This document shows positions 13,348 through 63,651 of a DNA stretch of 64,000 nt, one piece after another. Source of the DNA: Gammaproteobacteria bacterium (GTDB lineage Bacteria; Pseudomonadota; Gammaproteobacteria; JAJFKG01); assembly GCA_965116795.1 (NCBI GenBank), contig OZ220716.1, positions 810,503-874,502 of the forward strand, read 5' to 3'. The position numbers and the translations under genes are program-made. The stretch's first letter is position 1; each line of letters starts with the position of its first letter. The notes under the pieces were generated by a model. It was not told the DNA's origin. It searched no databases and saw only the letters and a program-made list of their open reading frames with translations.

Positions 13348-13487
13348 CAATAACTAATACCATGTTCGACTTTATCTAAAAAGCTAAATAAATTTGTCTT
13401 CAAAAACAACTTAATAGAACCTCTACACATCGAGGCGTTATTTCAGAAGCCGTGGAACGGCTGTCTGGGATCTGAATAAACGCTATT
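13348..13487 (-). repeat. Multi-hairpin dispersed element (family A), copy 1
   Basis: Reverse complement aligns with 17748-17890 and 63479-63651. Confidence 0.88.
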
Positions 13488-13677
13488 ACATAGAGAATCG
13501 AACATCACGTTAACTACAGCTACAGTCTAGTGCACTTTTAACATTAACAACATCAATGCACCAACATGATAATTGTATCAGAAGGGTGGTTGACTAGCGA
13601 TGTTAATCAGTGATTGAAAAGTTACCGCAATGTGTATAAAATAAGCACGATAAAAATTATTACCAGGAGTTTTAAGT

Positions 13678-14004
13678 ATGACCTTTGATACTAATATTGC
13701 CCTATTTTCTCCACAATCAGCCACTAACTTGCCAGATGAAACGGTTATGTCAGGCTCTGTTAGTTGGGAAAATTGGAAAGATCCTGAAGTAATTATGCTG
13801 ACAGCTATGCTGCTAACGGGTTGTTTGACCGTATATGTCCTTTGTTTTGGATCGGCTTTGATGTGGCAATTCGGTTGTTATGAGCCGAGGTCGAATCTTG
13901 ATGAAGAAATACCAGTGCCACAAGTTGAAGAAATGCCAGAACCTATTGGAAATGATGAGATGCCTCAGTCACAAATAATAACAGCTGCATTGCTTTATCG
14001 TTAA
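13678..14004 (+). CDS. Hypothetical single-TM acidic protein
   Basis: RBS AGGAG, upstream TTGAAA-17bp-TAAAAT promoter, one hydrophobic helix. Confidence 0.7.
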   Translation: MTFDTNIALFSPQSATNLPDETVMSGSVSWENWKDPEVIMLTAMLLTGCLTVYVLCFGSALMWQFGCYEPRSNLDEEIPVPQVEEMPEPIGNDEMPQSQIITAALLYR

Positions 14005-14064
14005 TCATATGTAGTTGCAAGTAAGTTTAGAATTTTTTATAGTGGCACTATATCTGTTAAAAAA

Positions 14065-14409
14065 GTGGTTGCTATGTTTCAGGCAGACGTCTCACAGCTT
14101 GCATCCGACGACATGTCTACGCTGTCTCAGCTAGAAGCGATTATCGATACGTTGCTAAACGAATATGCCACGTTGCAACATCAATATAGACAGCTTGAGT
14201 GCCACTGTGCGGCATTGGCTGAAAGTGAGCAGAATTTGCGTGATAAACAACAATCGGTGCATGATGCATTGAGCAAAACGGTTGCCAAACTCAAAGCGAT
14301 TAGTAATATACCTGAGCAAGAACTTAAAGTAACAGTGGCTGTCACAGAGCAGCCACCTGTTACTGAGACTGTTACTTCTCCCGTCGTTGCCACAGAGGAA
14401 GCCTTATGA
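14065..14409 (+). CDS. Coiled-coil protein upstream of zapA (ZapB/TIGR02449-like)
   Basis: Heptad pattern LSQLEAIIDTLLNEY...; overlaps the zapA start; own start uncertain. Confidence 0.7.
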   Translation: MVAMFQADVSQLASDDMSTLSQLEAIIDTLLNEYATLQHQYRQLECHCAALAESEQNLRDKQQSVHDALSKTVAKLKAISNIPEQELKVTVAVTEQPPVTETVTSPVVATEEAL

Positions 14410-14717
14410 CAATGGAAGATAAAGTTGCGATAGATATTTTAGGGCGGCATTTTAAGATTAAATGTCCGGCTGATAAAGTCACTGAGTTACAACAAGCAGC
14501 CGCATTTGTTGTTGAGATGATGGATGATATCCGTCAACAAGGGGTTAGCAGTCCGGATAGGATTGCAATTATGACAGCCTTGAATATTGCGCATGAATTA
14601 TTACTATTGCGAGAGCAAAAAGATCAGCAAGTGCGTAATATGGGTGAAAGATTGCATAAATTACAACAACGTATTGAGCAAGCATTAGTGCAAAACGAAC
14701 AATTGGAATTGGAATAA
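14406..14717 (+). CDS. zapA: Cell division protein ZapA
   Basis: ILGRHFKIKCP and RIAIMTALNIAHELL motifs. Confidence 0.95.
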   Translation: MTMEDKVAIDILGRHFKIKCPADKVTELQQAAAFVVEMMDDIRQQGVSSPDRIAIMTALNIAHELLLLREQKDQQVRNMGERLHKLQQRIEQALVQNEQLELE

Positions 14718-14736
14718 ACGCTGCGTTTCTTTCTTT

Positions 14737-14768
14737 CCCATTCCTGGGTCAAGCCGCGGGATGACGGT
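14737..14768. repeat. CGTC-type REP (degenerate left arm)
   Basis: GGTCAAGCCGCGGGATGACGG. Confidence 0.8.
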
Positions 14769-14950
14769 TGTAAAAGAAATAAAGTTAACAGATCTTTTTT
14801 GAAAATTTGAACCAATTCTTCACAACAATGTTAAATGTTATATAGTGATAATTTTCCCGATCATAACATTTACTATCTAATTAACATTATCAGTGATCGA
14901 TGTATAAGATAGTTTGCCTTTTCATGGTTGAAAGGTGGTATACTTTAACG

Positions 14951-15129
14951 TGCACGCACTGTTGTAATCTGTTAGTTATGTTACTTGAACCAATAAGTTA
15001 GCTAAGGGGTGCGTTACGTTAATATTGTTGTGCAAGCTTACCATGCAGTAAGAAGCCTGATATATTAACTCTGGATCCCACCTGAACCACCGGTTCAGTG
15101 GCTCGCACTAACAGTGTACAGTGCGTGCA
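14951..15129 (+). ncRNA. ssrS: 6S RNA
   Basis: Between zapA and ygfA; closing stem TGCACGCACTGT/ACAGTGCGTGCA, ~180 nt; 3' CCTGAACCACCGGTTCAG segment; extended -10 TGGTATACT at 14936-14944. Confidence 0.9.
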
Positions 15130-15148
15130 ATATCTATTGGATATCATT

Positions 15149-15775
15149 ATGCGTCAACAACAACACATCGCCCAAGCACAAGGTGGTAAACGTGAATTGC
15201 GTCGTAAGTTACGTATTTTACGTTGTAGTGTTAATCCGACTGTTCAACAAACCCATGCAAATACAGTTGCTGATTTATTAGCAGCACTGCCTTGTTTTAT
15301 ACAAGCAAAATACATTGCATTGTACATCCCGTTTGATGGGGAAATGCCAACGGATGCTATAGCCAACTTGATTTGGCGCCAGGGAAAGTTGAGTTATTTA
15401 CCGATTGTCACCCCAATGCAATCACAATTGTGTTTTGTGCCGTATACACAACACAGTCAACTAACTAATAATCAATTTGGTATTGCTGAACCTGATTATA
15501 CATTGGATAAAATTATTGATATTAATCAGTTAGACATTGTGATTACCCCACTGATTGCATTTGATGATAACGGTAATCGTCTAGGTATGGGGGGTGGTTA
15601 TTATGATAAGACATTTGCGTTTCTGCGCACATTATCTGAGCAACATCCCCAATTAATGGGTATCGCCTATGATTTTCAGCGACAAACATCATTACCAAAA
15701 CATACATGGGATGTGCCATTAACTGCGGTAATTACTGAGAAAAAAGTATATGAATTTGCTGATAATGGAGAATAA
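15149..15775 (+). CDS. ygfA: 5-formyltetrahydrofolate cyclo-ligase
   Basis: RLGMGGGYYDK, FGIAEP, WDVPL motifs; start moved to ATG 15149, downstream of 6S RNA. Confidence 0.93.
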   Translation: MRQQQHIAQAQGGKRELRRKLRILRCSVNPTVQQTHANTVADLLAALPCFIQAKYIALYIPFDGEMPTDAIANLIWRQGKLSYLPIVTPMQSQLCFVPYTQHSQLTNNQFGIAEPDYTLDKIIDINQLDIVITPLIAFDDNGNRLGMGGGYYDKTFAFLRTLSEQHPQLMGIAYDFQRQTSLPKHTWDVPLTAVITEKKVYEFADNGE

Positions 15776-15778
15776 ACA

Positions 15779-16231
15779 ATGCAATATTGGCTAATGAAAT
15801 CAGAGCCCAATGCATTTAGTATTGATGATTTACAAATAGGTAATGTTGATCATTGGGATGGTGTGCGTAATTACCAAGTGCGTAATATGTTGCGTGATCA
15901 AATGAAAAAAGGTGATTTAGCCTTTTTTTATCATTCTAATTGCAAGCCACCTGGAATAAGTGGCGTAATGCAAGTTGTGAAAGAAGGTTACCCCGATTTT
16001 ACAGCGTGGGATCCGCACAGCGATCATTTCGATTCAAGTAGTACTCCAGATAATCCGCGTTGGTTCATGGTCGATGTTAAATTTAAACGTAAGTTTGCTA
16101 ACGTAATCACGCTAACTGAATTAAAAGCGAATCCTGCATTGATCGACTTACCCATTTTACGCAAAGGAAATCGCTTATCGATTGTGCCTGTTACCGAACA
16201 ACAATGGAATGCCGTATTATCAATGCTGTGA
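15779..16231 (+). CDS. EVE domain protein
   Basis: YWLMKSEP, WDGVRNYQ, FFYHS, RLSIVPV motifs. Confidence 0.95.
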   Translation: MQYWLMKSEPNAFSIDDLQIGNVDHWDGVRNYQVRNMLRDQMKKGDLAFFYHSNCKPPGISGVMQVVKEGYPDFTAWDPHSDHFDSSSTPDNPRWFMVDVKFKRKFANVITLTELKANPALIDLPILRKGNRLSIVPVTEQQWNAVLSML

Positions 16232-16233
16232 AT

Positions 16234-17643
16234 TTACTGATTACTATCAATCATATCTTCTGGTCTAACCGCAACATCAAATTCTTCAGCGCTTAAATAG
16301 CCTAATTTAACGCACGCTTCACGCAAGGTGATATGTTGATGGTGTGCTTCGTGGGCAATCTTAGCGGCTTTATCGTAGCCAATCACAGGATTTAATGCGG
16401 TGACTAACATCAACGAATTTTCTAAGAAAGTTTGAATCTTATTACGATCAGGTGTTAATCCAATCACCATAAATTCAGTGAAACTACGACTGGCATCTGT
16501 AAGTAAACGTACTGATTGTAGAAAGTTAGCGATCATCATTGGTTTAAATACATTTAATTCAAAATTACCTTGTGATCCAGCAAATCCAATCGCTGCATCA
16601 TTACCCATGACTTGAATACATACCATTGTCATGGCTTCGCATTGGGTTGGGTTAACTTTACCTGGCATGATCGATGAGCCAGGTTCATTTTCTGGTAAAC
16701 ACAATTCACCAATACCACAGCGTGGCCCAGAACCCATCCAGCGAATATCGTTGGCTATTTTCATTAAAGCAGACGCCAATGTTTTTAAACTGCCACTGGC
16801 GCTCACTAAGGCATCGTGTGCTGCTAACGCTGCAAACTTATTCGGTGCAGAGGTAAACGGTAATTTAGTCAATTCTGCAATGTATTGTGCAGTTAACGTA
16901 GCAAACTCTGGATGAGCGTTTAAACCAGTACCAACCGCGGTACCACCGATAGCCAATTGGTATAAGCCATCTAAGCTGTGTTTAATACCATCCAATGCAT
17001 GTTCTAATTGTGCAACATACCCTGAAAATTCTTGGCCTAGACTCAACGGCACGGCATCTTGTAAATGAGTACGTCCAATTTTAATAATATCACGATAAGC
17101 AGCGGCTTTAGTGGCTAAGGCTTCATGCAATTGGGTAACAGCAGGGATTAATTCTTGGGTTAATCCAATTGCCGCAGCAATGTACATTGCTGTTGGAAAG
17201 GTATCATTGGATGATTGTGACATGTTAACATGATCATTTGGGTGGATTGGCGTTTTGCTACCTAATGTGCCACCGGTAATTTCAATGGCGCGGTTAGCAA
17301 TCACTTCGTTAGTATTCATATTAGTTTGAGTACCACTACCGGTTTGCCAAATGCGTAATGGAAAATGTGCATCCAACTTTCCTTGGTATATTTCAGTTGC
17401 TGCTTGAATGATTAATTCAGCTTTATCGTTAGGTAATTTTTCTAATTTATTATTAGCCAGTGCACAAGCATGTTTTAAAATACCCATTGCACGCACAACC
17501 GCTAGTGGCATACGGTCAGCATGCGGATCACCAATGGCAAAGTGGTGTAAAGAGCGTTGTGTTTGTGCACCCCAATATGCGTTGCTCGGTACTTGGATGT
17601 CACCCATACTGTCTGATTCAGTGCGATATGTGATCTCATTCAT
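16234..17643 (-). CDS. fumC: Fumarate hydratase class II
   Basis: [15 protein letters not shown] signature; start ATG 17643 with GAGGG RBS. Confidence 0.97.
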
Positions 17644-17747
17644 AGTGTATCCCTCGTTAACTGGCGGGCTAATCATACGGTGTTTTTGGGGGAAATCAAG
17701 TTAAAACACGAAGAGCGTATATTGCTGATAGGATTAATGTTAATTAC

Positions 17748-17890
17748 AATAGCATGACTAATTGGTTATTCGGATCCCAGATAGCCGTTCCACGGCTTCT
17801 GGGATAACGCCTCGACATGCAAAGGTTTTATTAAGGTGTTTTTGAAAGCAAACTTATTTGGCCTGTTAGATAAAATTAAATATGGCGTTA
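17748..17890 (+). repeat. Multi-hairpin dispersed element (family A), copy 2
   Basis: GGATCCCAGATAGCCGTTCCACGGCTTCTGGGATAACGCCTCGAC...TTAGATAAA...TATGGCGTTA. Confidence 0.88.
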
Positions 17891-17923
17891 CAATGCAATT
17901 AATCTACTGAGGATCTGACGTTT

Positions 17924-20179
17924 ATGACAATTACCACCAATACATTTAATGCCGATGGCATTGAACAAACACCGCTGCATGTGTTTACTGAAAAAGCTTA
18001 TCTCGATTATTCAATGTACGTCATTTTAGATCGTGCCTTACCACATTTAGGTGATGGTTTAAAACCAGTACAACGGCGCATCGTTTATGCGATGTCAGAA
18101 TTAGGCTTAAAAGCCAGTGCTAAATACAAAAAGTCTGCACGCACTATCGGGGATGTATTAGGTAAATACCATCCGCACGGTGATGCAGCCTGTTATGAAG
18201 CGATGGTGCACATGGCACAAGCATTTTCTTATCGTTATCCATTAGTAGATGGTCAAGGTAACTGGGGTTCAACAGACGATCCAAAATCATTTGCTGCAAT
18301 GCGTTATACCGAAGCACGTTTAGCTAAGTATGCGCAAACACTATTAGCTGAATTAGGACAGGGTACGGTTGATTGGCAAGCTAACTTTGATGGAACATTA
18401 CAAGAGCCAGTTAATTTGCCAGCACGTTTACCGAATGCATTATTAAATGGTGCCACTGGGATTGCAGTTGGTATGGCAACCGACATTCCACCACATCATA
18501 TTAATGAAGTAGTCAGTGCGTGTATTCACTTATTAGAATCGCCGCGGGCAACGTTAGACGATATTTGTCAGCATATTAAAGGTCCTGATTTTCCAACCGC
18601 AGCTGAAATCATTACACCACATCAAGAGATCATGACAATGTATCGCACTGGAAATGGCAGTGTACGGTTACGTGCTGTGTACAGCAAAGAAAAGAGCGAC
18701 ATTGTGATTACCGCACTACCTTATCAAGTCTCTGGTGCCAAAGTATTAGAACAAATCGCGCAACAAATGCGTGCAAAGAAATTGCCAATGGTAACGGATT
18801 TACGTGATGAGTCTGATCACGAAAATCCGACCCGTTTGTTAATTACGTTAAAGTCTAACAGGGTAGATGCAGATAAATTGATGGCGCACTTGTTTGCAAC
18901 AACCGATTTAGAACGTAGTTATCGCGTTAATCTGAATATGATTGGCTTAGATGGTCGTCCCAAAGTTTTTAGTTTATTGGAATTTTTAAAAGAGTGGTTA
19001 TCATTTCGTAAACAAACAGTAAAACGTCGCTTACAATATCGTTTGGAAAAGGTAGAAGCACGATTACATATTTTAGATGGGTTATTGATCGCGTACCTGA
19101 ATATAGATGAAGTGATCCAATTGATTCGTGAGGCCGATAAACCAAAGGTTGAATTGATTAAACGGTTTAAATTATCTGAATTACAGGCAGAAGCCATTTT
19201 AGACTTAAAGTTGCGCCATTTGGCTCGTTTAGAAGAGATTAAGATCAAAGGTGAACAAAGTGAGCTGGCCGATGAACGTGACAGTTTAACTCAAACGCTT
19301 AGTTCAGAAGGTCGCTTAAAAACCCTAATCCGTAAAGAACTCACCAGTGATGTAAAAGAATATGGTGATCAGCGTCGTTCGCCATTAGTTGAACGTGGAC
19401 AAGCGCAAGCATTACGTGAACAAGATGTCTTACCCAATGAAGCAGTCACCATTGTGCTATCTAAAAAAGGCTGGGTGCGTGCTGCCAAAGGTCACGATAT
19501 TGATCCGAATACATTAAGTTATAGAGCCGGTGATGGGTTCTTAACCAGCGCTAAAGGGCGTAGTAATCAAGCAGCATTGTTTATTGATACCAGTGGGCGT
19601 AGTTATAGTATACTTGCCCACAGCTTGCCGTCGGCGCGTAGCCAAGGAGAGCCATTAACTGGGCGCGTCAAGTTAGCAGAAGGTGCTGAATTTATCGGTG
19701 TATTATCTGGAGAAGTAGAACATTACGCATTATTAGCATCAGACGCAGGCTATGGATTCATGACTCAGTTAAGTGAATTACACACTAAAAACCGTAATGG
19801 TAAGGCGGTGTTAAAGCCACCGACAAATACATTAGCACTAACACCATGTAGTGTTACCCAATTAGATAATACAGTGATTGTAGCGATTAGTAGTACAGGA
19901 CGTTTGTTAGTCTTTGCAACCAGTGAGTTACCTTTGCTGGTGCGCGGTAAAGGAAATAAGATCATGAATATTCCAAGTAGCAGTGCAGCCAAGCGCGATG
20001 AATTGATGGCGCATGTCGTGGTATTGGATAAAACAAAGAGTTTAGCGATTCAATCTGGTAAACGTACTCTAACGTTGAAACCAAAAGACTTAATCAATTA
20101 TCATGGTAAACGTGGCCAACGTGGTAGCAAACTACCGCGTGGTTTTCAACGGGTAGAAGCAGTGAGTATAATCGATTAA
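17924..20179 (+). CDS. parC: DNA topoisomerase IV subunit A
   Basis: [28 protein letters not shown]-terminal GSKLPRGF. Confidence 0.97.
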
Positions 20180-20215
20180 TTCAATGTAATTTTAAGATGT
20201 AAAGTAAGGGGATTT

Positions 20216-21016
20216 ATGGCACGGGTTAAAGACAAGGTTACATTGATTACCGGCGGCAGTCGAGGCATTGGCTTAGCCACAGCTGAGTTATTTGCACGTG
20301 AAGGTGCAACTGTCATTATCACCGATATTTTAGTCGACGAAGGTCAAGCAGCTGCTAACGACATTGGTGCACAGTTTTATCGATTAGATGTTACTGATGA
20401 ACAAGCTTGGCAGGATGTAATGCAGACGATTAAGCAACAATACGGTCGCTTAGATATTGTATTTAATAATGCTGGGATCACCGGCTTTGATCACAATTTA
20501 GGTCTGCAAGATCCAGAGCATACCAGTTTAAAGGCATGGCATTATGTACATCAAGTGAATTTAGACGGGGTATTTTTAGGATGTAAATATGCTATTAGTT
20601 TAATGAAACAACACGGTGGCTCTATTATTAATATGTCATCGCGTTCTGGTTTGGTTGGTATTCCAGGCGCTGCTGCATATGCATCGAGTAAAGCAGCCGT
20701 GCGTAATCATACTAAATCAGTTGCTTTATATTGTGCGAATGCCGGTTACCATATTCGGTGTAATTCAGTGCACCCGGGGGCAATCTTAACTCCAATTTGG
20801 GATGCAATGTTAGGTGATCCTAACAACCGGGAGACTGCTATTGCTAATGTTGCTGCCGGGATTCCATTAGGTCACATGGGTGAACCAATCGATGTTGCTA
20901 ATGCAGTGCTGTATTTAGGATCAGATGAATCGAAATACATAACTGGTATTGAATTAACGATTGATGGAGGTATTTTGGCAGGCAGTAGTGCGTCACCAAA
21001 ATCGGATGAAGAATAA
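20216..21016 (+). CDS. Short-chain dehydrogenase/reductase
   Basis: TGGSRGIG, NNAG, YASSK catalytic motif. Confidence 0.93.
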   Translation: MARVKDKVTLITGGSRGIGLATAELFAREGATVIITDILVDEGQAAANDIGAQFYRLDVTDEQAWQDVMQTIKQQYGRLDIVFNNAGITGFDHNLGLQDPEHTSLKAWHYVHQVNLDGVFLGCKYAISLMKQHGGSIINMSSRSGLVGIPGAAAYASSKAAVRNHTKSVALYCANAGYHIRCNSVHPGAILTPIWDAMLGDPNNRETAIANVAAGIPLGHMGEPIDVANAVLYLGSDESKYITGIELTIDGGILAGSSASPKSDEE

Positions 21017-21087
21017 CTATTTACTCAAAGTCATGCTATTTTAAGCTCTTAATTACTCAAGAGTTAAGAAAACAATATAAATTGTTA

Positions 21088-21242
21088 TAGGCTGTTTACA
21101 ATTTGCTAAAACGAATTGGTTTACTGCAATGAACATTATGAAATTTAAAGAGACTGAATTATCTATTTCCCTCCTGGTTCGTTATCCCACAGCTTGACCG
21201 CGGGATGATGGACTTGTAGAACGGAATTGTAAATAGTCCCTA
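21088..21242. mobile_element. MITE with imperfect TIRs containing a degenerate REP
   Basis: TAGGCTGTTTACAATT ... AATTGTAAATAGTCCCTA; internal CGTTATCCCACAGCTTGACCGCGGGATGATGG. Confidence 0.72.
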
Positions 21243-21256
21243 ATGTGTTGCTATTA

Positions 21257-24200
21257 TTAATGTGGTGATAGTGAGATAAAAGATAACGGTCCACTTTTGT
21301 TAGACGATAGCGTGGTACTATTACTAAATAGATTACTAAGTGAATTACTAAGTTGACCAATGACACTTTGCTGATATTCAGTTTTTTCCAAGGTTTGTTT
21401 TTCAGTTCGTTCTAATAGTTGGAGAAGCTGCTCTTTTTGCTGCGTGCATTTTGCTGAGACATTATGTGATTTCAACATGGATAGTGCTGTTTTACCATCT
21501 TTATTTGTGATTGTTACATCAGCTCCATGCTCGAGTAATAGTTTGCAGATGACTATGTTATTTGCTGTCATTTCATACGACATAGCTTTAATTAAATCCA
21601 TTAATGGGGTATTCCCATCATTATCTTGTAAGTTAATACTAATATTAGGTTGTTTCAATAACAAAGTTACTATATCTAGTTTATTACTGTTTTTAACTTG
21701 TTTATCATCATAATTTTGCTCTTTATTACCATTTCTAATGCGTTTAAATTTGCTAATTTGGTCTTTTAAGCAGAAATCACTTGCTATTGCATAAAATAGT
21801 GCATTTCTTCCTGTATTGTCTTGCATGCTTGTAGATGCGCCATTCTCGAGTAATAATTCAACCATCTTGTGATCATTAGATACTATAGCCACCATCAACG
21901 GTGTTTTCCCTCTAGTAATTTCGTGTCCGTATTTATATTGATTTTGGCTGTCTACCTCAGCGCCTTTTGCAAGTAAAAAATTCACCATATTATGATCACC
22001 ATTTAATGTGGCAATATGCAGTGCCATGTAATCAAAGCCAGTTCTTTGATTAACATCTATTTCAGGGCGAGATAACAGGATGGATGCTAAGCCTTGTGAA
22101 CGATTTTTAACAGCAGTATGTAATGGAGTAATATGGGCGTGTATACTAATATTATTGATATTTGACTGGTTTTTTGTTTGTAAAATTTCTTTTTTTACGT
22201 TTACTCTTGAATTTTGAAGTAACAATAAAGCTATATCTGATAATTTATTTTTTATATAGTTATCCTGTTGGTAATCGTGGCATTCAGCTAATATATGCAA
22301 TGCATTATTATCTCTATCGTCAATAGCAGATAAATCAATGACATTATGGTTAATGAGCCATTCAACCATAGCTACATTTGTGTTTTTAATTGCGTGCATT
22401 AAACAAGTTTCGCCGCAGTATAATTTTTGATTTTCATCAATTCTGGATAAATCAGCTCCTCTTGCGAGCAACAGATCTGCTATTTCGGTGTTCCCAGTTC
22501 TAATCGCAGTAGTAAGAGGTGCTTTAGCATTACTGGATTGGTTGATATTAGCACCTCTGTCCAAAAGTAGTTCTACAAGTTCTTTGTTTTCTGCTTCCAC
22601 TGCCGCAATCAGTGGAGATTTATCATAAAATTTAAAGCTGTGAATAAACTTTGATTTATTTGCTGTATTTGGATCAGCACCTGCTTCAATTAGCATTTTA
22701 GCAATACCAAATTGTCCTTCTTCAATTGCATAGACTAAAGGAGTGTTACTATTACCATCTCGTGCATTAAGTTTGGCTTTAAATGCAATCAATAATTTGA
22801 TAAGTTCTATACGACCTTTTGCAATTGCTGCTGTTAATGGAGATTTTTTACTGACTTCTAGATAATATGTATTTTGATTTGCTTGGTCTAGATTAGCACC
22901 TGCTTCAATTAGCATTTTAGCAATACCAAATTGCTCTTCTTCAATTGCATAAACTAAAGGAATGTTTTCTTTACCATCTCGTGCATTAAGTTTGGCTTTG
23001 AATGCAGTCAATAATTTGATAAGTTCTATATGACCTTTTGCAATTGCTGCTGTTAATGGAGATTTTCTACTGACTATCGGTCCGTATCTATCTTGCTTTA
23101 TTTGATCTAGATCGGTCCCTTGTTCAATAAGTATTCTAGCAATTTCAAGTTGTCCTTCTTCAATTGCAAGTGTTATAGGACTGATACTATATTTATTTGA
23201 TCGATGCTTGACGAACAGCATGACAACGTCAGCATATCCGTATTTCATTGCAGTTTCTAAATAGTCCAAGTTGTTTTTTTCAGGATAATTCGCAATTATT
23301 TTTTCAATAATATCAATATTTCTGATTTTCATTGCAGTTTTTAAACTGTTTGAGATGTATTTATTTTCTGCGACTAGATGTGTTCTAGGTCCACCTGCTT
23401 TTGAGCCAGAAGTAACTGCACTACTTGTTAAGTTATTTACTGGGTTAATATTCAGTTGGTGAGTGATCCCATTTAGTAATTTTTGAAATATAAGCAAAGG
23501 AAGTTCTCTTGGTAAACGAAATGAATGTGCGCTACCTTTTAGGTCACCATCAAGTGTCTTGGGATCATTAAAATAGTTTCTGTAATTTTCAGTATAGTGG
23601 CAAGAAAATTGATTTTGACTGGATGATCTATTTTTAACAAATCCTATATTACCTTCTATTTCACCGTGATTATTGTGAGTCTCTTTAACCCATGTCTTAA
23701 TTGTATCTTCAAGATCAAGTCGTTGCTTCGGATTTAATTGTTTAAAATTTGTTGGCAGTTTACTTATTTTTAAGCAAAGTATTTTAGGTAATTTTTTTGG
23801 TTGATAATAATCTAATTCATCATCGATGAAGTATATTTCCCATTGCTTTTTTTCACTATTAAGAATAAATAAATATTCATTTCTAATACGAGCTTCTTTC
23901 TGAGGTAACTCTTCAAGAAATTTTACACCGATGCCTGATTTCCAAATTCCAAAACCAAAAAGTAAGCCATTGATTCCAGCTTTGTTGCCAAGTTCAAGTT
24001 TTGCAGCACTGAATGTATGTAAATCACCAGTAAAATTCCCCAGCTCTTGCATGGATTCAACAGCACCAGCAAAAGGTTGATTAAATTTATCAGTTCTTAG
24101 AAGACCGTCATTCTTATTAAATGCGGGAATAAGGTGTATTTTGACAATGGATTGATCTTCATTTGGATTATTTGGATCAGGAAGTTCGGCAAGACCAATG

Positions 24201-24382: not shown

Positions 24383-24426
24383 TTTTATTACCTTTGCTTA
24401 TTTTGTTATAATTAAAAATTGGCAAT

Positions 24427-24469
24427 ATTATACTAAAAATAACCAAATAGGTCAAATTTTGACCTATTT
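24427..24469 (-). promoter_or_regulatory. Sigma70 promoter of the ankyrin gene with overlapping palindromic operator
   Basis: Minus strand TTGACC-17bp-TATAAT; perfect 12-bp inverted repeat AAATAGGTCAAA-T-TTTGACCTATTT (24445-24469) covers the -35 box. Confidence 0.75.
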
Positions 24470-24583
24470 ATTTTTTAATCAGTTAACTTTTAGCATTATT
24501 AAGAAGGCAACTTGGAATGATTCTCGTAAAGAGATAAGCTATTGAAAATATTATAATTTTCCCGCATGGGATAGTTTAGTGTT

Positions 24584-45372: not shown

Positions 45373-45374
45373 GA

Positions 45375-53560: not shown

Positions 53561-53563
53561 AAT

Positions 53564-54406
53564 TTACTCCTTACTGTTTTGCTTAGTGAATTGTTCGGAA
53601 AGTTCCATTGAACGAGCTGCTGCATTAGATAGTGCTTGTTGAACAATATCTGCTAATTGTTTATCGTTAAATAGGTTAATCGCTTGTTCAGTTGTCCCTT
53701 GTGGTGATGTGACATGTGCACGCAAATCGGCAATGGACACATCACTTTCCAGTGCCAATTTGGCCGCACCAAATACAGTTTGCAATGTTAATAATTCAGC
53801 TGTTTTTTGTGATAATCCTAATGTGATTGCTGCCTTAATTAATGCTTGCATAAACAAATAAATATAAGCAGGCCCACCGCCTGATAATGCGGTGACAGTG
53901 TGTAATTGTTCTTCGTTATCTAACCAAATTGCCATGCCAACTGCACGGATAATTGATTCAGCTAAATCACGTTGTTGCAAACTTACCTGTTGGTTAGCAT
54001 ATAATGCGCTGGCACTACATCCGATCAATGCTGGTGTATTTGGCATGCAGCGTACAATGGCTAAGTTGCCGCCAAGCCATTGTTGAATACTAGATTCAGT
54101 AACCCCTGCGACAATACTGATAATTAATGGTTGTTTAGCTTGAATGTGATCGCGTAGTGTATTGCACAATTCATGTAAACAGTGTGGTTTGACTGCCAGT
54201 ACGACGACATCTGCCGAGTTGACGGCAGTGATGTTATCAGTAGTTGTCTGTATACTAAAGCGTTGTGCTAGAGCAGCTAGTGCATCGCTGTTACGACGTG
54301 TTGCCCAAATGGATTGTTCAGGATAGCCTCGTTGGCGCAATCCACCGATTAAACTGGCTGCCATGTTGCCTGCGCCGATAAATGCAATGGTTGCCTGTGT
54401 TGACAT
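53564..54406 (-). CDS. proC: Pyrroline-5-carboxylate reductase
   Basis: IGAGNMA, RCMPNTP, VTSPQGTT motifs. Confidence 0.96.
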   Translation of the reverse strand: MSTQATIAFIGAGNMAASLIGGLRQRGYPEQSIWATRRNSDALAALAQRFSIQTTTDNITAVNSADVVVLAVKPHCLHELCNTLRDHIQAKQPLIISIVAGVTESSIQQWLGGNLAIVRCMPNTPALIGCSASALYANQQVSLQQRDLAESIIRAVGMAIWLDNEEQLHTVTALSGGGPAYIYLFMQALIKAAITLGLSQKTAELLTLQTVFGAAKLALESDVSIADLRAHVTSPQGTTEQAINLFNDKQLADIVQQALSNAAARSMELSEQFTKQNSKE

Positions 54407-54464
54407 GACATTTAACCCTTTACGATTTGTTTATTGTCGTAATGATTGTACTATTAGCGTTTGC

Positions 54465-55163
54465 TTAAGGGAATGGCTTTTTAGGTATTGTTGTTGTACG
54501 TTGTCCAAAAATGGCTGTACCTAAACGTACCGTGGTTGCACCATGTGCAATCGCCTGCTCCCAATCAGCTGACATACCCATCGATAATGTATCTAATACA
54601 ATACCTGCCGCACAGATTTCTTGACATAATATCTGCATGCGTGCAAAAGCGGTTTGTGTGTGCGGACGTGGGATTGCCATCAAGCCGCGTAATGTTAAGG
54701 CTGGTAAAGTTGATATTGCTTGTGCTAGTGATAATACATCTGTTGGTGCAATCCCGGATTTCTGCGGTTCATTATCAATATTCACTTGGATGCACACATT
54801 CAGTGGCGCTAACTGAGTTGAGCGTTGTGCAGCTAGGCGAGTTGCTTGGTCGAGTCGGGTTACGCTGTGTACCCACGCGAAATGATTAGCAATTAGGTTA
54901 ATTTTATTACGTTGAATCGTACCAATATAGTGCCAAATCAGATCAGGCAAGTCAGCCAGTAATGTCATTTTCCCCAACGCTTCTTGTACTCGGTTTTCAC
55001 CAAAATGGCGTTCACCTGCTGTATATGCTTCACGAATAGCACTGTCTGGATGATTCTTGCTCACACAGATTAAGGTCAATGAATTAGCGGATCGTTGCTG
55101 TGCAGCCAAACAAGCGTGGGCACGTTGGTGAAAATTGACTATATTATCAGTAAGCTTATTCAT
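54465..55163 (-). CDS. yggS: PLP homeostasis protein
   Basis: VSK, FGENRVQE, LRGLMAIP, LSMGMS motifs. Confidence 0.95.
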   Translation of the reverse strand: MNKLTDNIVNFHQRAHACLAAQQRSANSLTLICVSKNHPDSAIREAYTAGERHFGENRVQEALGKMTLLADLPDLIWHYIGTIQRNKINLIANHFAWVHSVTRLDQATRLAAQRSTQLAPLNVCIQVNIDNEPQKSGIAPTDVLSLAQAISTLPALTLRGLMAIPRPHTQTAFARMQILCQEICAAGIVLDTLSMGMSADWEQAIAHGATTVRLGTAIFGQRTTTIPKKPFP

Positions 55164-55188
55164 GAGTTTGCCTTTAGGAGCATTGGTA

Positions 55189-56226
55189 ATGGATATTAAG
55201 GATTTACTCGCCTTCGCTGTTGAGAATAAAGCATCTGATTTGCATTTATCAACTGATTTACCACCGATGATTCGGGTTGATGGTGATTTGCGTCGTATTG
55301 ATATTCCGGCATTAGATCAGCAAACTACACATGATTTATTATACGCTGTGATGACAGATAAGCAGCGACGTGAATTTGAAGAAAATCTTGAAATTGACTT
55401 TTCATGTGAAATTCCAAAACTATCACGTTTTCGGGTAAATGTGTTTAATCAGAATCGTGGTATCGCGGGCGCGTTTCGGGTAATTCCAGCCACCATTTTA
55501 AGTTTGGAAGAATTAGATGCCCCTGCTAGTTTGTCAAATATTGCTAAGTTTCCACGCGGATTGGTATTAGTAACCGGTGCAACGGGTTCCGGGAAAAGTA
55601 CAACATTGGCTGCCATGTTACATGCAGTCAATAAACAACAGTATTCTCATATTATTACTATTGAAGATCCGATCGAATTTGTACACGTTAGTAATCGTTG
55701 TTTGATCAATCAACGTGAAGTGCATCGAGATACCTTTAGTTTTAGTAATGCATTACGTTCTGCATTGCGTGAAGACCCTGATATTATCTTAGTGGGTGAG
55801 ATGCGTGATTTAGAAACCATTCGTTTAGCATTAACGGCTGCTGAGACTGGGCACTTGGTATTTGGAACGTTACACACGACATCAGCAGCTAAAACAATTA
55901 ATCGGATCATTGATGTTTTTCCTGGTCCTGAGAAAACAATGGTACGTACGATGTTATCAGAATCATTACAAGCAGTAATTGCGCAAAACTTATTAAAGAA
56001 AAAGGGTGGTGGCCGGATTGCAGCACATGAGATTATGATGTGTACCCCGGCGATTCGTAATTTAATTCGTGAGGATAAGATCGCACAAATGTATTCAGCA
56101 ATTCAAACAGGTCAAAACGTAGGGATGCAAACCCTGGAGCAGTGTTTATTAAAATTAGTGAATGAAAATAAAATACCAAAAGAAACAGCAGTCGATGCGG
56201 CTAATAATAAAGATATGTTGAAATAA
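55189..56226 (+). CDS. pilT: Type IV pilus retraction ATPase
   Basis: ASDLHLS, GATGSGKST, TIEDPIE, LREDPD, AIRNLIRE motifs; start ATG 55189 with AGGAG RBS. Confidence 0.96.
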   Translation: MDIKDLLAFAVENKASDLHLSTDLPPMIRVDGDLRRIDIPALDQQTTHDLLYAVMTDKQRREFEENLEIDFSCEIPKLSRFRVNVFNQNRGIAGAFRVIPATILSLEELDAPASLSNIAKFPRGLVLVTGATGSGKSTTLAAMLHAVNKQQYSHIITIEDPIEFVHVSNRCLINQREVHRDTFSFSNALRSALREDPDIILVGEMRDLETIRLALTAAETGHLVFGTLHTTSAAKTINRIIDVFPGPEKTMVRTMLSESLQAVIAQNLLKKKGGGRIAAHEIMMCTPAIRNLIREDKIAQMYSAIQTGQNVGMQTLEQCLLKLVNENKIPKETAVDAANNKDMLK

Positions 56227-56328
56227 AAATAACTACTTAGGTTTTTTTAATGTAAACGCCATCTTTAGCAGAACTTGCCAGACAATATCAGTAAAACGTG
56301 CTCATGTATGCTAAATATACTGCGAAGC

Positions 56329-56362
56329 CCGTCATCCCGCGGCTTGACCGCGGGATGACGGG
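56329..56362. repeat. CGTC-type REP palindrome
   Basis: CCGTCATCCCGCGGCTTGACCGCGGGATGACGG, identical to 6608-6640; both are followed closely by GGAGAGAGGTAGTT. Confidence 0.9.
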
Positions 56363-56378
56363 AGAGAGGTAGTTACAT

Positions 56379-56409
56379 AAAAAAAGCCCACCAAACAGGT
56401 GGGCTTTTC
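56379..56409 (-). terminator. Intrinsic terminator of groEL (probably bidirectional)
   Basis: AAAAAAAGCCCACC-AAACA-GGTGGGCTTTT. Confidence 0.85.
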
Positions 56410-56447
56410 TATTTGTGACTGTAGGTCAGTCGGTAGCAAAGGCTGTA

Positions 56448-58103
<1,656 letters not shown>

Positions 58104-58153
58104 TCACTAATAAATTACGTTAATTTAACCTTAAATATCACAGTAAGTGGTTA

Positions 58154-58450
58154 TTACTCGACAACACCAATGATGTCATCTTCGCGTAGTACCACTAACT
58201 CTTCGTCGCCGATTTTAGTTTCAGTGCCGGCGTATTTACCAAACAACACGGTGTCGCCTTTTTTAACATCGGCAACTTCGCGACGTTTGCCATCATCTAA
58301 GAATTTGCCAGGGCCGACGGCGATCACTTCACCTTCCGCAGGCTTTTCTTTTGATGAATCTGGGATCAAAATCCCACCCTGAGTTTTTTCTTCACCAGGC
58401 CGACGTCTGACAATGACGCGATCACCTAATGGACGAAGCTGTTTACTCAT
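58154..58450 (-). CDS. groS: Co-chaperonin GroES
   Basis: [22 protein letters not shown] motifs; start ATG 58450 with AGGAG RBS. Confidence 0.97.
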
Positions 58451-58493
58451 GCATGTTTCTCCTAAATATAAAAAAGTTGAACATCGTGCCTGA

Positions 58494-58558
58494 CATACTC
58501 TTCGCATTTTGACTGTGGGCTTTATTGGCTTTGCCTACATTTAAAATACGTTGAGTCA
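58494..58558 (-). mobile_element. Internally deleted ERIC-like element in the groES leader
   Basis: CATACTCTTCGCATTTTGA...GGCTTTATTGGCT joined to GCCTACATTTAAAATACGTTGAGT, matching both ends of 9973-10100. Confidence 0.7.
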
Positions 58559-58613
58559 GCGTAAGCGCAATGTAATTCTTTGAAAAAGCCTAACTTTTTC
58601 GTAAGATTACAGA

Positions 58614-58667
58614 TTAGCACTCTCGCCTAGCGAGTGCCAATCATACGCCCTTTGCAAAGTGAGTCAA
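58614..58667 (-). promoter_or_regulatory. CIRCE operator (HrcA site) and sigma70 promoter of groESL
   Basis: TTAGCACTC-N9-GAGTGCCAA at 58614-58640; minus strand TTGACT-16bp-TATGAT immediately upstream. Confidence 0.9.
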
Positions 58668-58717
58668 GCGTGTAGGCCTTACCAAGTTACCCCAGCGTTC
58701 CCACGTGTGCCTGTGAT

Positions 58718-60592
58718 ATGATGGCACGTCAAACAAATTTCAAGGTTATTGAATTGAATAACTATCCTAATCGGTACAGTCGTCGTCGGTTTGCATGGGG
58801 ATTCGTGCTACTGTTTGCGCTTTGTGTAACCAGTGCATTTGCCACAACACCCCTACCAGCACAACGTGCTTTTGTATTGTCCACGATGGTGTTGCCAACA
58901 ATTAAAGTGTCCAAATCAAGTGCAGATGAAATGGTAATGGTGCGCGCTACTTGGCAGATTACCCTGGACCATTTCTTATATCGCGATCAAATTACCGTTA
59001 GGCTAGCTGATAATACGGATGAGATGACGGCTATTGGCGTTGTACAATTTCCTACAGGTATGATGCATACCGATGCATTATCACAACAGTATCCGATTTA
59101 TCGTGATCAAGTGGCCATTAATATTCCCATTGTTTATCCACAACAGTCAATAATTACACTCGATATTAGTTATCAAGGTTGTTCGGATGCCGGACACTGT
59201 TATCCACCTATCACCCAACGTGTTTCATTGGATTTGCAACAACCTGGTGTCGCTATTCAGGGTCACGTACAACCAAGTAGTGTACTGAGTACAGTCGATG
59301 AGTTAGTTAATCCACAGGCTATTTGGTTAACGTTAATGAGTTTTATTGGATTGGGATTGCTGCTAGCGTTTACACCGTGTGTGTTGCCAATGATTCCAAT
59401 CTTGTCTGGGATCATCATTGGGCATGGTACTCAGTTAACTACGTTCAAAGGGTTTTTATTATCGTTATCCTATGTATTGGGTATGTCATTAACCTATGCG
59501 GTGTTTGGCATTGTGATCACCACAGCGGGTTATAACTTACAAGTGTTATTACAAACACCGTGGGTAATTGGTTTATTTAGCTTGCTATTTATTGGATTAG
59601 CATTATCGATGTTTGGCTTATTTGAATTACGCCTGCCACGTGCAATTGAACAGATATTACATATGCTTAGCTATCGCCAACGCAGTGGAACCTATTTGGG
59701 TGCGTTTGTTATGGGTTCAATTGCAACGTTGTTAGTTTCACCGTGTGTGAGTGCACCGCTGGTTGGTGCATTGGCTTATATTAGTAAAACTGGTGATATT
59801 ACATTGGGTGCGTTGACATTATTTTGTTTAGGGTTAGGCATGGGATTACCGTTGTTGTTACTGGGTATTTCTGGAGGAAAGTATTTGCCTCGCAGTGGTC
59901 ATTGGACGCGACGCATTAATGCATTGTTTGGTTTCTTACTATTAGCAGTGGCTGTTTATTTGGTGGAACGCTTATTACCAAGTGTTATTGCAATGTCTTT
60001 ATGGGCAATGTTATGTATTATGATCGGCATTTATCTTATATCACTCACACTACCACACCTACAAGCACGCATCATCAGTAAAACAATTGGCTTAATTAGT
60101 ATTGGTTTAGCGGTATTAATTTTTATAGGTGGCATGTTAGGTAACACATCACCGCTAAAACCGTTAGCTAATTTACATTACACAGCTCGACACGGTTGGC
60201 AGTTAACAACGAATTCGCTGTCATTTATTAATATAAAAACAGTGAATGATTTGAAACAACAATTGCAATTGGCGCGAACACAACATAAAGCAGTGATGTT
60301 AGACATTTATGCTGATTGGTGTATTGCATGTAAAGTCATTGAGCGTGATGTGTTTACCCATCCCGCTGTAATTGATGCGTTGCAATCATTTGTGTTATTG
60401 CAAGCAGATGTGACAGTTAATAATGCTGCTGATCGTGCCTTACTTAAAGCGTATGACATTATTGCACCGCCAACGATTCTATTCTTTGATAAGAATGGCA
60501 CTGAACTGATTGCTACACGGATCATTGGTGAAATTAATGCGCAGCAGTTTTTGCAACATATTGCGTCAGTCTCCTCATCAAATGCGGACTAA
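58718..60592 (+). CDS. dsbD: Thiol:disulfide interchange protein DsbD
   Basis: YQGCSDAGHCYPP, FTPCVLPM, SPCVSAPL, WCIACK motifs; start uncertain. Confidence 0.94.
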   Translation: MMARQTNFKVIELNNYPNRYSRRRFAWGFVLLFALCVTSAFATTPLPAQRAFVLSTMVLPTIKVSKSSADEMVMVRATWQITLDHFLYRDQITVRLADNTDEMTAIGVVQFPTGMMHTDALSQQYPIYRDQVAINIPIVYPQQSIITLDISYQGCSDAGHCYPPITQRVSLDLQQPGVAIQGHVQPSSVLSTVDELVNPQAIWLTLMSFIGLGLLLAFTPCVLPMIPILSGIIIGHGTQLTTFKGFLLSLSYVLGMSLTYAVFGIVITTAGYNLQVLLQTPWVIGLFSLLFIGLALSMFGLFELRLPRAIEQILHMLSYRQRSGTYLGAFVMGSIATLLVSPCVSAPLVGALAYISKTGDITLGALTLFCLGLGMGLPLLLLGISGGKYLPRSGHWTRRINALFGFLLLAVAVYLVERLLPSVIAMSLWAMLCIMIGIYLISLTLPHLQARIISKTIGLISIGLAVLIFIGGMLGNTSPLKPLANLHYTARHGWQLTTNSLSFINIKTVNDLKQQLQLARTQHKAVMLDIYADWCIACKVIERDVFTHPAVIDALQSFVLLQADVTVNNAADRALLKAYDIIAPPTILFFDKNGTELIATRIIGEINAQQFLQHIASVSSSNAD

Positions 60593-60703
60593 TAGTAGTC
60601 AACGTGAAGAATTTGCAGTGAACTTGCGACGAATTGCAGTGAACTAGACAAGAAATCTGAATTACGGCACAATGCGCGTCAACCATCAACTCGGATGATA
60701 TTG

Positions 60704-61159
60704 ATGACGAATGTGCACAAAATTTGGGTGTTACACGGACCAAATTTAAACCTACTGGGACAACGCGAGCCAGATGTCTATGGCCATGTATCGCTAGCTG
60801 ATCTCAATGGTGAATTAACCACCTTTGCTACACAACATGATGTTGCATTGACTTGCCATCAACATAATGCCGAACATGCACTAATTGAGTTAATCCACCA
60901 AGCTAAAGTAGATCATGTACAATGCATTGTGTTTAATCCCGCTGCATTTGCTCATACCAGCATTGCGTTGCGCGATGCATTATTAGCAGTCAACATTCCG
61001 TTTATTGAAGTGCATTTGACTAATGTTGATGCGCGTGAACCATTTCGACAACAATCCTATTTTTCAGATATTGCACTCGGTGTGATCAGTGGGTTTGGTG
61101 TACAAAGTTATTTATTGGGATTGCATGCAGCTGTAAAGTATGTGCAATGCAAATGTTAG
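60704..61159 (+). CDS. aroQ: Type II 3-dehydroquinate dehydratase
   Basis: [31 protein letters not shown] motifs. Confidence 0.96.
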
Positions 61160-61164
61160 TAATG

Positions 61165-61233
61165 TTACTCAGGTATTATAGGCTCAAGCAATTGGATTGT
61201 CGCCTCGCCTACAATTCAAGGGTGCCGAGTATA
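61165..61233. mobile_element. Degenerate short ERIC-like remnant upstream of accB
   Basis: TTGTCGCCTCGCCTACAATTCAAG...GAGTATA matches the right end of 40384-40510. Confidence 0.6.
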
Positions 61234-61249
61234 GTGGAGATAATAAATA

Positions 61250-61696
61250 ATGGATATTCGTAAAGTCAAAGCATTAATTGGGTTGTTAAAAGAAACAGGC
61301 GTAGCTGAAATTGAAATTCATGAAGGTGAAGAATCAGTGCGTATAAGCCACTATGCGACAAATGCGCCTGTTACTAGCGTACCGGTTGCTGCTCCTGCTG
61401 CACAAGTCGTAACACCTACACTTGAAGCACCATCGCCAACTAAGACCACGATTAGTGGACACGAAGTAAAGTCACCGATGGTTGGCACAATGTATACGTC
61501 ACCATCTCCAGGCGAACCGACATTTGTGGATGTTGGTCAACGGGTGAGTGTTGGTGATGTGTTATGTATTATCGAAGCAATGAAAATGTTTAATCAGATC
61601 GAAGCGGATAAAGCAGGGGTAGTCAAAGCACGCTTAGTTGAAAATGGACAACCTGTTGAGTTTAATCAGCCACTATTTATCATCGACGATGAGTAA
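61250..61696 (+). CDS. accB: Biotin carboxyl carrier protein
   Basis: EAMKM biotinylation motif, SPMVGT. Confidence 0.97.
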
Positions 61697-61729
61697 TTTG
61701 TTTTTAATTATGTTTATAGAGAAAATTAC

Positions 61730-63070
61730 ATGTTTGATAAAATTGTCATAGCCAACCGTGGTGAAATTGCTTTACGCATTTTACGTGCATGCAAAGAGCT
61801 AGGCATTAAAACGGTTGCAGTTCATTCGATGACAGACCGTAATTTAATTCACGTACGCCTTGCAGATGAATCTGTTTGTATCGGTCCAGATAAGGTGGCT
61901 GATAGTTATTTAAATATTCCCGCGGTAGTTAGTGCTGCTGAAGTTACTGATGCTTTAGCACTGCATCCAGGTTATGGCTTTTTGGCTGAGAATGCTGATT
62001 TTGCAGAACAAGTCGAAAAAAGTGGTTTTGTTTTTATTGGACCAACACCTGATACTATTCGTTTAATGGGTGATAAAGTCTCGGCAATTGCTGCAATGAA
62101 ACAAGCTGGCGTGCCATGCGTTCCGGGATCAGACGGACCATTGGGTGATGATTCGCAAACCAATCTAAGTATTGCACGTGATATTGGTTATCCTGTCATT
62201 ATTAAAGCCGCTGGTGGTGGTGGTGGACGTGGTATGCGCGTTGTTCGTAGTGAGGCTGCGTTAATTAATGCGATTAGTATGACGCGTCAAGAAGCTAAAG
62301 CTGGTTTTAATAATGATATGGTGTACATGGAAAAATTTTTAGAAAATCCGCGCCACATCGAGATCCAAGTGTTGGGAGATGGTAGGGGAGATGCAATCCA
62401 CTTAGGAGAACGCGATTGTTCATTACAACGACGCCATCAAAAAGTATTGGAAGAATCACCAGCACCAGGTTTGAGTGAAGAACAACGACAAACCATTGGT
62501 ATGCGGTGTGTGCAAGCGTGCCGAGAAATGTGTTATCGGGGTGCAGGCACATTCGAATTCTTGTATGAAGATGGGCATTTCTATTTTATTGAAATGAATA
62601 CCCGTGTCCAGGTAGAACATCCAATCACTGAAATGGTTACCGGAATTGATATTGTTAAAGAGCAGATTAAGATAGCAGCAGGTGAGCCACTGACTATTAA
62701 GCAAGATGATATTCGATTATCTGGACATGCGATCGAGTGTCGGATTAACGCAGAAGATCCATTTAACTTTACCCCTAGTCCCGGTAAGGTTGATCTATAT
62801 CATCCACCGGGTGGTCCTGGGATCCGCGTCGACTCACATCTTTATAGTAGTTATACGGTGCCGCCACACTACGATTCATTAATTGGTAAATTGATTGCGT
62901 ATGGTAATGATCGTCAATCTGCCATTCGACGTATGCGTCAAGCGTTGGATGAGTTACTCATCGAGGGGATTAAAACCAATACTGCCTTACATCAAAAGTT
63001 AATGCGTGATAGCCACTTTATCGAAGGTGGGGTTAATATCCATTATCTTGAAAAGAAACTGAATTTATAA
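61730..63070 (+). CDS. accC: Biotin carboxylase
   Basis: [36 protein letters not shown] motifs. Confidence 0.98.
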
Positions 63071-63295
63071 AGGGAAAATCAGGGTATATCTGCTCTCTAA
63101 GAACCCCAGTTCTAGGGTTAAAGATCATCTGTATTCAGGATAAACGGGTATAACTCATAGCAACCCGATAATTTTTATATAAGAATTTGCAAAAACAGTA
63201 TGTTAGCTAGCTTAGTGGTCAAATATGGCCGGCTGTTTTTGTGCATAAATTGGCCAATTCAGGCCATCTTTTTTCCGAAAAAGGGCAAATTAGAC

Positions 63296-63329
63296 TTGTA
63301 TACTTCATTACCAATGTCTATAATGCGGC
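63296..63329 (+). promoter_or_regulatory. Sigma70 promoter with GC-rich discriminator (probable fis promoter)
   Basis: TTGTAT-17bp-TATAAT-GCGGC. Confidence 0.7.
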
Positions 63330-63478
63330 TTCCTTTAGTCGGGATCTCCTCATAGGACAGTGTACAGGGGTAGTTGCCAGGACAGCTGTCGTCGATGTTG
63401 TTTTTAGGCGGTAGCCGTGCTGTCAGGTGGAGAATAATAGTAACGAAATAAGTTAACGTAATGTTCGCTTTTTTATAC

Positions 63479-63651
63479 AATAGCGTAATTATTTGATTTT
63501 TTGGATCCTGGATAACCGCTTTGCGGCTTCCAGAGCTTGTCCTGGACTCGATCCAGGAATAACGCCTCAACGCGTAGAGGCTCTATTAATTTGTTTTTGA
63601 GAACAAATTTACTTGGTTTCTAGATAAAGTCGAATATGGCGTTAGTTATTG
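63479..63651 (+). repeat. Multi-hairpin dispersed element (family A), copy 3, with nested palindrome
   Basis: Aligns to copies 1 and 2; extra CTTGTCCTGGACTCGATCCAGGA inserted in the REP-like arm. Confidence 0.88.

Follow-up and report, generated by a model that had tools for sequence, protein, structure and literature searches.

Three repeats upstream of core genes in a gammaproteobacterial genome interpreted as copies of a short, gene-less element with IS982-type ends

Three copies of a repeat lie in a 64,000-nucleotide stretch (hereafter the window) of the genome of a Gammaproteobacteria bacterium (assembly GCA_965116795.1, contig OZ220716.1, positions 810,503 to 874,502), and an earlier sequence-only reading had taken them for an unrecognised mobile structured RNA or single-stranded DNA element, or for a portable leader/promoter. 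[quoted passage not shown] The element has the properties by which MITEs are recognized: it is short (well below the 300–400 bp or so that bounds this class) and lacks a transposase gene, it ends in terminal inverted repeats (TIRs), it is flanked by target duplications, and it is present in many dispersed copies. The sequence-only reading correctly recognized three homologous copies close to where it had placed them (75–81% pairwise identity), described sub-motifs that can all be found in the sequence, and was right to regard the repeat as mobile, as the IS982-type ends and target duplications indicate. What finds no support is the proposal of an unrecognised structured RNA or single-stranded DNA system, since the ends match those of a resident IS982-family insertion sequence (IS), target duplications are present, and no Rfam family is matched.

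To place the three copies in the context of the whole genome (2,447,832 bp in one contig, 41% G+C), we searched it with an nhmmer profile built on 15 complete copies. With a cut-off of E ≤ 1, it gave 28 matches in the genome and none when the genome was reversed; 25 matches, found in both orientations, were retained; the three set aside are the end of a different short family (E 0.3), a lone right TIR (E 0.37), and a decayed copy (E 4e-4). The count of three copies was thus too low, the genome-wide number being about 25. Full copies are 154 to 190 bp long and carry 17-bp imperfect TIRs (n = 15 complete copies), and three further copies represent the same TIR element with an insert in the left TIR. 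The left end is ACGTGATGTTCGACTTT and the right end, read inward, is ACGCCATGTTCGACTTT. Alignment of the copies together with their flanks places the true 5′ boundary approximately 23 bp outside the one first drawn, with copies 1 and 3 running 23 bp further 5′ to end in the 17-bp TIR pair; the terminal TA that had been counted as part of GGCGTTA is the start of the target duplication, as it is at the IS, and not part of the element. The alignment analyzed below has 21 rows, omits four partial copies, and includes three rows without 3–4 nt of the left end. Sequence identity is 75–93% within subfamily A (median 87%), 78–89% within subfamily B, and 55–73% between the two, and no two copies are identical.

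The ends connect this family to IS982. The right and left consensus TIRs are identical to the IS982 TIR of the same genome at 16 of 17 and 14 of 17 positions, respectively, and both fit the family pattern AC-N6-T-N5-TT as given in a review of the family (PMC7335449). These are IS982-family ends, the kind of match to a known IS that the sequence-only reading had itself named as counting against its proposal. In subfamily B, the left and right TIRs vary together, which we count in favor of the IS982-type assignment. An end-motif scan identified five resident IS982-family elements of 1,018 bp each that are identical but for one base (Table 1) and are likely a recent arrival; one of them sits between genes that, from their translations, we take to be rsfS-like and rlmH-like. 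The IS982 element holds an open 297-codon frame that scores 228 bits against the NF033520 IS982 family transposase model (cut-off, 130 bits); in this transposase, D113, D192, and E240, the putative catalytic triad, are kept in 99–100% of 120 aligned homologues. Relics of at least two other IS982 relatives are present in the genome, as is a second family of 121 bp with IS982-type ends and a different interior (genome 101992–102113, L003, and 1919132–1919252, L002), the latter copy of which is flanked by an exact 7-bp duplication. The spread of the MITE is old, because its copies have diverged and none are identical, whereas the IS copies are nearly so. An earlier IS982 relative probably acted as the helper, which need not have been the IS now present in five copies, and that original helper may have died out.

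The sequences flanking the element point in the same direction. Exact duplications of 5–8 bp are found at 7 of the 15 complete MITE copies compared with 11 of 210 left–right pairs taken from different copies, and allowing up to one mismatch raises these counts to 11 of 15 and 43 of 210; neither MITE count was reached in any of 20,000 permutations. All five IS982 copies have exact duplications of 5–7 bp (1 of 20 cross pairs), and exact 7- and 8-bp duplications flank two of the three copies with an insert in the left TIR. The MITE duplications are AT-rich, with TA first on the right side, and the lengths at both MITE and IS fall within the 2–10 bp range reported in the IS982 family review (PMC7335449). 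An alternative would be a MITE of the IS630/Tc1 kind with TA as its target and ends at TA, comparable to ERIC, RUP, or Correia elements; TA is indeed found just outside the right end in 14 of the 15 complete copies and just outside the left end in nine. Correia/NEMIS ends are of this TA type, unlike those of the MITE described here. However, all five IS982 copies also have TA next to them, as the first letters of a 5–7 bp duplication, and the left flank of six MITE copies ends in TT or TG, as a longer duplication explains. With TIRs that match IS982 and 5–8 bp duplications that had already disfavored it, an IS630/Tc1-like origin is hardly credible.

A number of observations weigh against an IS982-type MITE. 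The left TIR differs from that of the resident IS at 3 of 17 positions, and an exact duplication is missing in 8 of the 15 complete copies. No parental remnant is discernible: six-frame translation of 15 copies reveals no similarity to a transposase (best E 1.2), and the interior resembles neither the resident IS nor related IS982 loci beyond the TIR, in a sample in which close transposases occur in 6 of 400 genomes of the class. A DNA search found the MITE sequence in none of 40 other genomes, which include the only same-genus and same-family genomes; these two are 90–97% complete and may leave repeats unassembled, and the transposase of the resident IS982 was found in neither. No joint that skips copy 1 or copy 2, as an empty site would, was seen in four sequencing runs, all of them near-identical or patchy, and the 40 genomes include no relative close enough for a comparison of filled and empty sites. 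Finally, the TIRs vary more than the central hairpin discussed below (6.2% versus 1.0% non-consensus), a difference that a model of passive cargo does not explain by itself.

Elements with the same TIR pair do occur in other genomes. Pattern scans for the TIR pair, which required exact matches and a length of 160–190 bp, returned three matches in genome contigs and five in metagenome contigs (two of which duplicate the former), all with unrelated interiors, and several such elements of other genomes have 6–7 bp duplications. In one 177-bp element (L013:301–477), the leader of an IS982 transposase is still present together with its first 22 codons (E 2e-5); on its sequence, this would be a MITE at birth, which shows how such elements can arise. 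Within the genome studied here, the copy at 805645–805821 joins a subfamily-B-like left part to a subfamily-A right part, which suggests a mosaic formed by recombination between copies.

We then consider whether the element is a portable leader/promoter or structured RNA under selection upstream of core genes, as first proposed. All three window copies do stand in sense orientation just upstream of ygfB-like, parC, and fis-like genes, 57, 35, and 56 nt from the start codon, respectively, where the ygfB and fis assignments have scores under the curated cut-offs. Gene context genome-wide was taken from our own hexamer-based calls (2,129 genes, 86% coding), which are not a curated annotation. On this basis, the next gene has the same sense in 11 of 25 copies (binomial P 0.69) and the previous gene in 12 of 25, and 14 of 25 copies are on the leading strand of replication, with no bias. 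A fixed orientation upstream of genes is therefore not a property of the family, whose random orientation across the genome is an outcome that the sequence-only reading had listed as refuting its proposal, and three of three in sense is attributable to chance because the next gene shares the sense of only 11 of 25 copies; the caveat of the sequence-only reading that this could be so (chance of about 0.085) was well placed. Of the element ends that face the 3′ end of a gene, 18 of 26 are no more than 20 nt away from it, compared with 1 of 24 of those that face a 5′ end (Fisher P 1.4e-6, uncontrolled for ordinary gene spacing), and in five copies the first base of the element completes the TAA stop codon of the gene. 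We read this proximity to 3′ ends as insertion at A/T-rich sites followed by filtering by selection.

Folding lends the leader interpretation some support, since entire copies fold well. The three window copies fold better than shuffled sequences (z −3.5, −3.2, and −3.8), and one intact copy reaches z −8.0 and −5.0 on its two strands, largely through the ends and the central hairpin. In the 3′ interior, there is a slight lean to the strand favored by the sequence-only reading (median z −1.4 versus −0.8 for the other strand). In the RNAalifold analysis of the 21 aligned copies, 6 of 23 pairs have changed on both sides, and every one of them belongs to the central hairpin; these changes separate the subfamilies and therefore stand for two or three events only. 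In the CCTC stem, which is 93% paired, no pair has changed on both sides. Pairing is 82–83% in the TTGTTT and TTTATTTAG stems, where two-sided changes affect one and three pairs, respectively, in one or two sequences each and in poorly aligned A/T-rich columns; these small stems belong to the regions of the element that vary most, the AGACAA arm more than any other (23.5% non-consensus). Covariation, which the sequence-only reading had proposed as a check, is clear in the REP-like hairpin and not in the other stems. Its suggestion that differences between copies keep pairing through G–U on the sense strand is borne out by the count of alignment cells (27 G–U versus 5 A–C in the TTGTTT stem, 41 versus 8 in the TTTATTTAG stem) but reflects mostly inherited wobble: distinct pair types number 5 versus 2 and 5 versus 4, respectively, with 11 and 14 other mismatch types. 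Of the three copies, it is copy 2, from which the left TIR is gone, that alone forms the TAACGCC/GGCGTTA closing helix; in copies 1 and 3, the right end pairs with the left TIR. Rfam returned no match at the gathering score in the window copies and none at E ≤ 1 in five loci.

Promoter activity fares no better. Weak resemblance to promoters is seen across the left end of copy 3 and across the right end of copy 2, and other IS982 elements are listed as activating downstream genes (PMC7335449, Table 3). However, no promoter-like site is common to the three copies, and the counts are near those of shuffles (2 versus 1.8, 3 versus 1.1, and 1 versus 1.6). In the only same-genus genome among those searched, parC overlaps the upstream gene, which leaves no space for an element. 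With close contacts mostly to gene 3′ ends, small stems that vary, and an orientation count that by itself largely refutes it, a leader, promoter, or structured RNA under selection is extremely improbable.

The central hairpin of the IS982-type MITE resembles repetitive extragenic palindromes (REPs). Read on the strand opposite to that of the sequence-only reading, it starts CGTTATCC and ends GGATC, with an 8-bp outer stem that is 93–98% paired and shows compensatory changes, in keeping with the 8–9 bp, A–T-started stem of CGTC REPs or Ssn-related motifs (SRMs). Where an SRM is expected to have an unpaired CGTC, TGTC, or CCTC tag, every one of the 21 aligned copies has CGTT (or, in two of them, TGTT) and never CGTC. 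The published SRM pattern has a single match inside the 25 copies (36 genome-wide and 8 in the reversed genome), and the hairpin was not found outside the element in this genome. Because it departs from the tag and the SRM pattern and was not found outside the element, the hairpin is at most REP-derived cargo and is not classed here as a REP. It is nonetheless the most conserved part of the MITE: in the 15 rows of subfamily A1, differences affect 4 of its 420 paired cells, compared with 28 of 451 end cells and 137 of 1,429 elsewhere, and private changes number 2 in the hairpin versus 47 elsewhere (P 7e-4, with significance lost when G/C columns are taken alone, P 0.10). Selection, self-repair of the palindrome by template switch, or gene conversion could each explain this uniformity. 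Independent insertion of a REP into older, empty MITEs was considered and rejected, as none of the 21 aligned copies spans the site without the hairpin.

These features could also be read as those of an element built on a REP, whose movement or maintenance in single-stranded form would depend on its CGTC-type hairpin, for instance through the Ssn-like GIY-YIG nuclease of this genome, with the TIRs as passengers. The exceptional conservation of the hairpin, the compensatory changes at six of its pairs, and the presence in the genome of 34 free CGTC REPs, three of them around a 96-aa GIY-YIG gene, are in line with such a system. On the other hand, the boundaries and duplications lie at the TIRs and not at the hairpin, the tag and pattern are those of neither a CGTC REP nor an SRM, the private-change test loses significance in G/C columns, and template-switch repair or gene conversion might equally keep a palindrome uniform; taken together, we regard this alternative as very unlikely. 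The 96-aa GIY-YIG gene with its CGTC REPs resembles the Ssn arrangement in layout, as far as that arrangement is described in PMC11893778, and is a candidate Ssn-like gene. Two small GIY-YIG genes, 64% identical, are present (L004:1438–1728 and L005:1438–1857, both on the minus strand), the first of which is flanked by CGTC REPs. A hairpin of 14–25 nt is nested in the central hairpin of four copies, with a related one in the left TIR of three others (Table 1); it could represent a very small mobile unit or, alternatively, an ancestral segment that slippage has removed. At genome 2276977–2277200, the right half of a MITE abuts two paired canonical CGTC REPs, an arrangement that resembles the insertion of one repeat into another.

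A second internal feature of the IS982-type MITE is a candidate site for integration host factor (IHF). The consensus WATCARNNNNTTR, with a looser R that we assume to be permissible, is exact in 11 of 21 copies, always at bp 31–43 or the aligned place, and is found anywhere in 352 of 5,000 intergenic 164-mers taken as background. The consensus columns vary by 4.8% compared with 17.2% in the four free columns. The strict form of this consensus is given as WATCAANNNNTTR in work on Coxiella burnetii (PMC5896051). Among the window copies, the candidate site is present in copy 3, deleted in copy 1, and degraded in copy 2. The consensus recurs with the same polarity 18–26 bp from an end in both copies of the 121-bp family, where it is exact and 23–24 bp from one end, and in four of six distinct elements of other genomes (L012, L016, L017, and L018, but not L011 or L013), a comparison in which L016–L018 are related to one another and the distance window emerged only post hoc. 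None of 14 IS982 ends, full-length or relic, contains it. IHF alpha is encoded in the genome. A role for IHF in bringing the element ends together is a reasonable inference by analogy, because the outside end of IS10 has an IHF site that extends to bp 42 (PMC3159471) and the 155-bp Correia element is reported to bind IHF, which was proposed to aid transposition (PMC2229807).

Several published elements share parts of this architecture. MITEs derived from an IS982-family element (ISCca4), MITECca01 and MITECca02, are reported for the Cardinium endosymbiont cOegib (PMC9769881) and are similar in being short, gene-less, mostly intergenic, and lineage-specific, with TIRs like those of an intact resident IS982. 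They comprise 169 copies of approximately 240 bp, compared with about 25 old and diverged copies of 154–190 bp here; the REP-like hairpin and IHF consensus found here are not mentioned for them in the main text of that report, and no remnant of a parental interior was found here. Relative to the IS982 family as reviewed, the MITE shares the AC-N6-T-N5-TT ends and 17-bp TIRs, lacks a transposase, and has one sixth of the length (PMC7335449). QMITE2 of Coxiella burnetii is described as similar in length (150–190 bp), in its variable long duplications, in carrying a REP, and in often lying at gene 3′ ends, and QMITE1 has a conserved IHF site, as here; the REP of QMITE2 is of the GTAG type, and its helper is not named as IS982 in that account, the likeness considered here being one of description (PMC5896051). 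Correia/NEMIS elements of Neisseria are likewise short, intergenic MITEs with an internal IHF site but differ in sequence (PMC2229807). As CGTC REPs and SRMs are presented in PMC3733652 and PMC11893778, the MITE hairpin is like them in the ATCC...GGAT outline of its stem and in carrying, on the strand opposite to that of the sequence-only reading, a terminal tag; it differs in its CGTT tag, in having a 15-nt inner hairpin in place of the loop, and in being a single unit inside a TIR element. In a literature search from which subscription literature was mostly absent, we found no description of this MITE family or of IHF sites in IS982-type MITEs.

Table 1. Features of the three window copies, with genome positions of the resident IS982 and of the nested hairpin
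Feature	Position	Strand	Remark
Copy 1, complete MITE, 154 bp	13357..13510	-	10–11 bp internal deletion removes IHF consensus
Copy 1 left TIR	13494..13510	-	
Copy 1 right TIR	13357..13373	-	
Copy 1 left target-site duplication TAGTTA	13511..13516	-	exact, 6 bp
Copy 1 right target-site duplication TAGTTA	13351..13356	-	exact, 6 bp
Copy 1 REP-like hairpin	13440..13472	-	outer stem with two substitutions
Copy 2, 5′-truncated MITE	17746..17888	+	left TIR gone
Copy 2 REP-like hairpin	17773..17805	+	
Copy 2 right TIR, degenerate	17872..17888	+	
Copy 3, complete MITE, 187 bp	63456..63642	+	
Copy 3 left TIR	63456..63472	+	
Copy 3 candidate IHF site (consensus match, bp 31–43)	63486..63498	-	
Copy 3 REP-like hairpin, variant with compensatory changes	63504..63560	+	
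24-nt nested hairpin within copy 3 REP-like hairpin	63532..63555	+	in 4 copies; 10 related hairpins outside the MITE
Copy 3 right TIR	63626..63642	+	
Copy 3 left flank AAGTTA	63450..63455	+	5/6 match to right flank; putative decayed duplication
Copy 3 right flank TAGTTA	63643..63648	+	
Five 1,018-bp IS982 copies	genome 239088, 300345, 956146, 1514878, 1646568		
Nested-hairpin sites	window 63532–63555; genome near 805650, 52190, 1635650		ten free sites, e.g. 58887, 280905, 2353827

Two further features of the window bear on the surroundings of the copies. Upstream of copy 3, at window positions 63296–63331, inspection by eye identifies TTGTAT-17-TATAAT followed by a G/C-rich stretch, which could be the native fis promoter and would then put copy 3 inside the leader; the promoter scan did not list this site (its −35 matches at 3/6), and no match to dusB adjoins fis. 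A 6S RNA (Rfam RF00013) lies at window positions 14953–15128, presumably its usual place after the zapA region.

We propose that an IS982-family transposase acting in trans likely spread the MITE around the genome. The transposase would bind both TIRs and cut an AT-rich target in a staggered manner, leaving the duplication, while the predicted IHF site at bp 31–43 would bend the short element and help its two ends to meet. The interior may be an old, captured CGTC-type REP hairpin that was inherited with the element. Copies would survive where they are harmless, the three in the window being survivors in 5′ intergenic regions, and an influence on ygfB, parC, or fis, should there be one, would be a side effect. 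We raise as a tentative and rather doubtful extension that short IS982-type MITEs are built composites rather than simple products of deletion, under selection for an IHF site 18–30 bp inside one end that the full-length IS lacks, since 120–190 bp needs a sharp bend for the ends to meet, and that the family described here has in addition captured a CGTC/Ssn-type REP hairpin, still kept intact by a protein or a processing step.

This result closes a false lead, in that the repeat is a MITE of a published kind: IS982-derived MITEs are already known from Cardinium, and MITEs with a REP or an IHF site from Coxiella and Neisseria. Its modest value is that one genome combines a short element with a clean helper and with a rule for the target, for a family whose transposition chemistry is described as unresolved in the review available (PMC7335449). 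Finally, the occurrence of the IHF consensus in the short elements and not in full-length IS ends suggests, from sequence comparison, an idea as to how very short transposons may synapse their ends.

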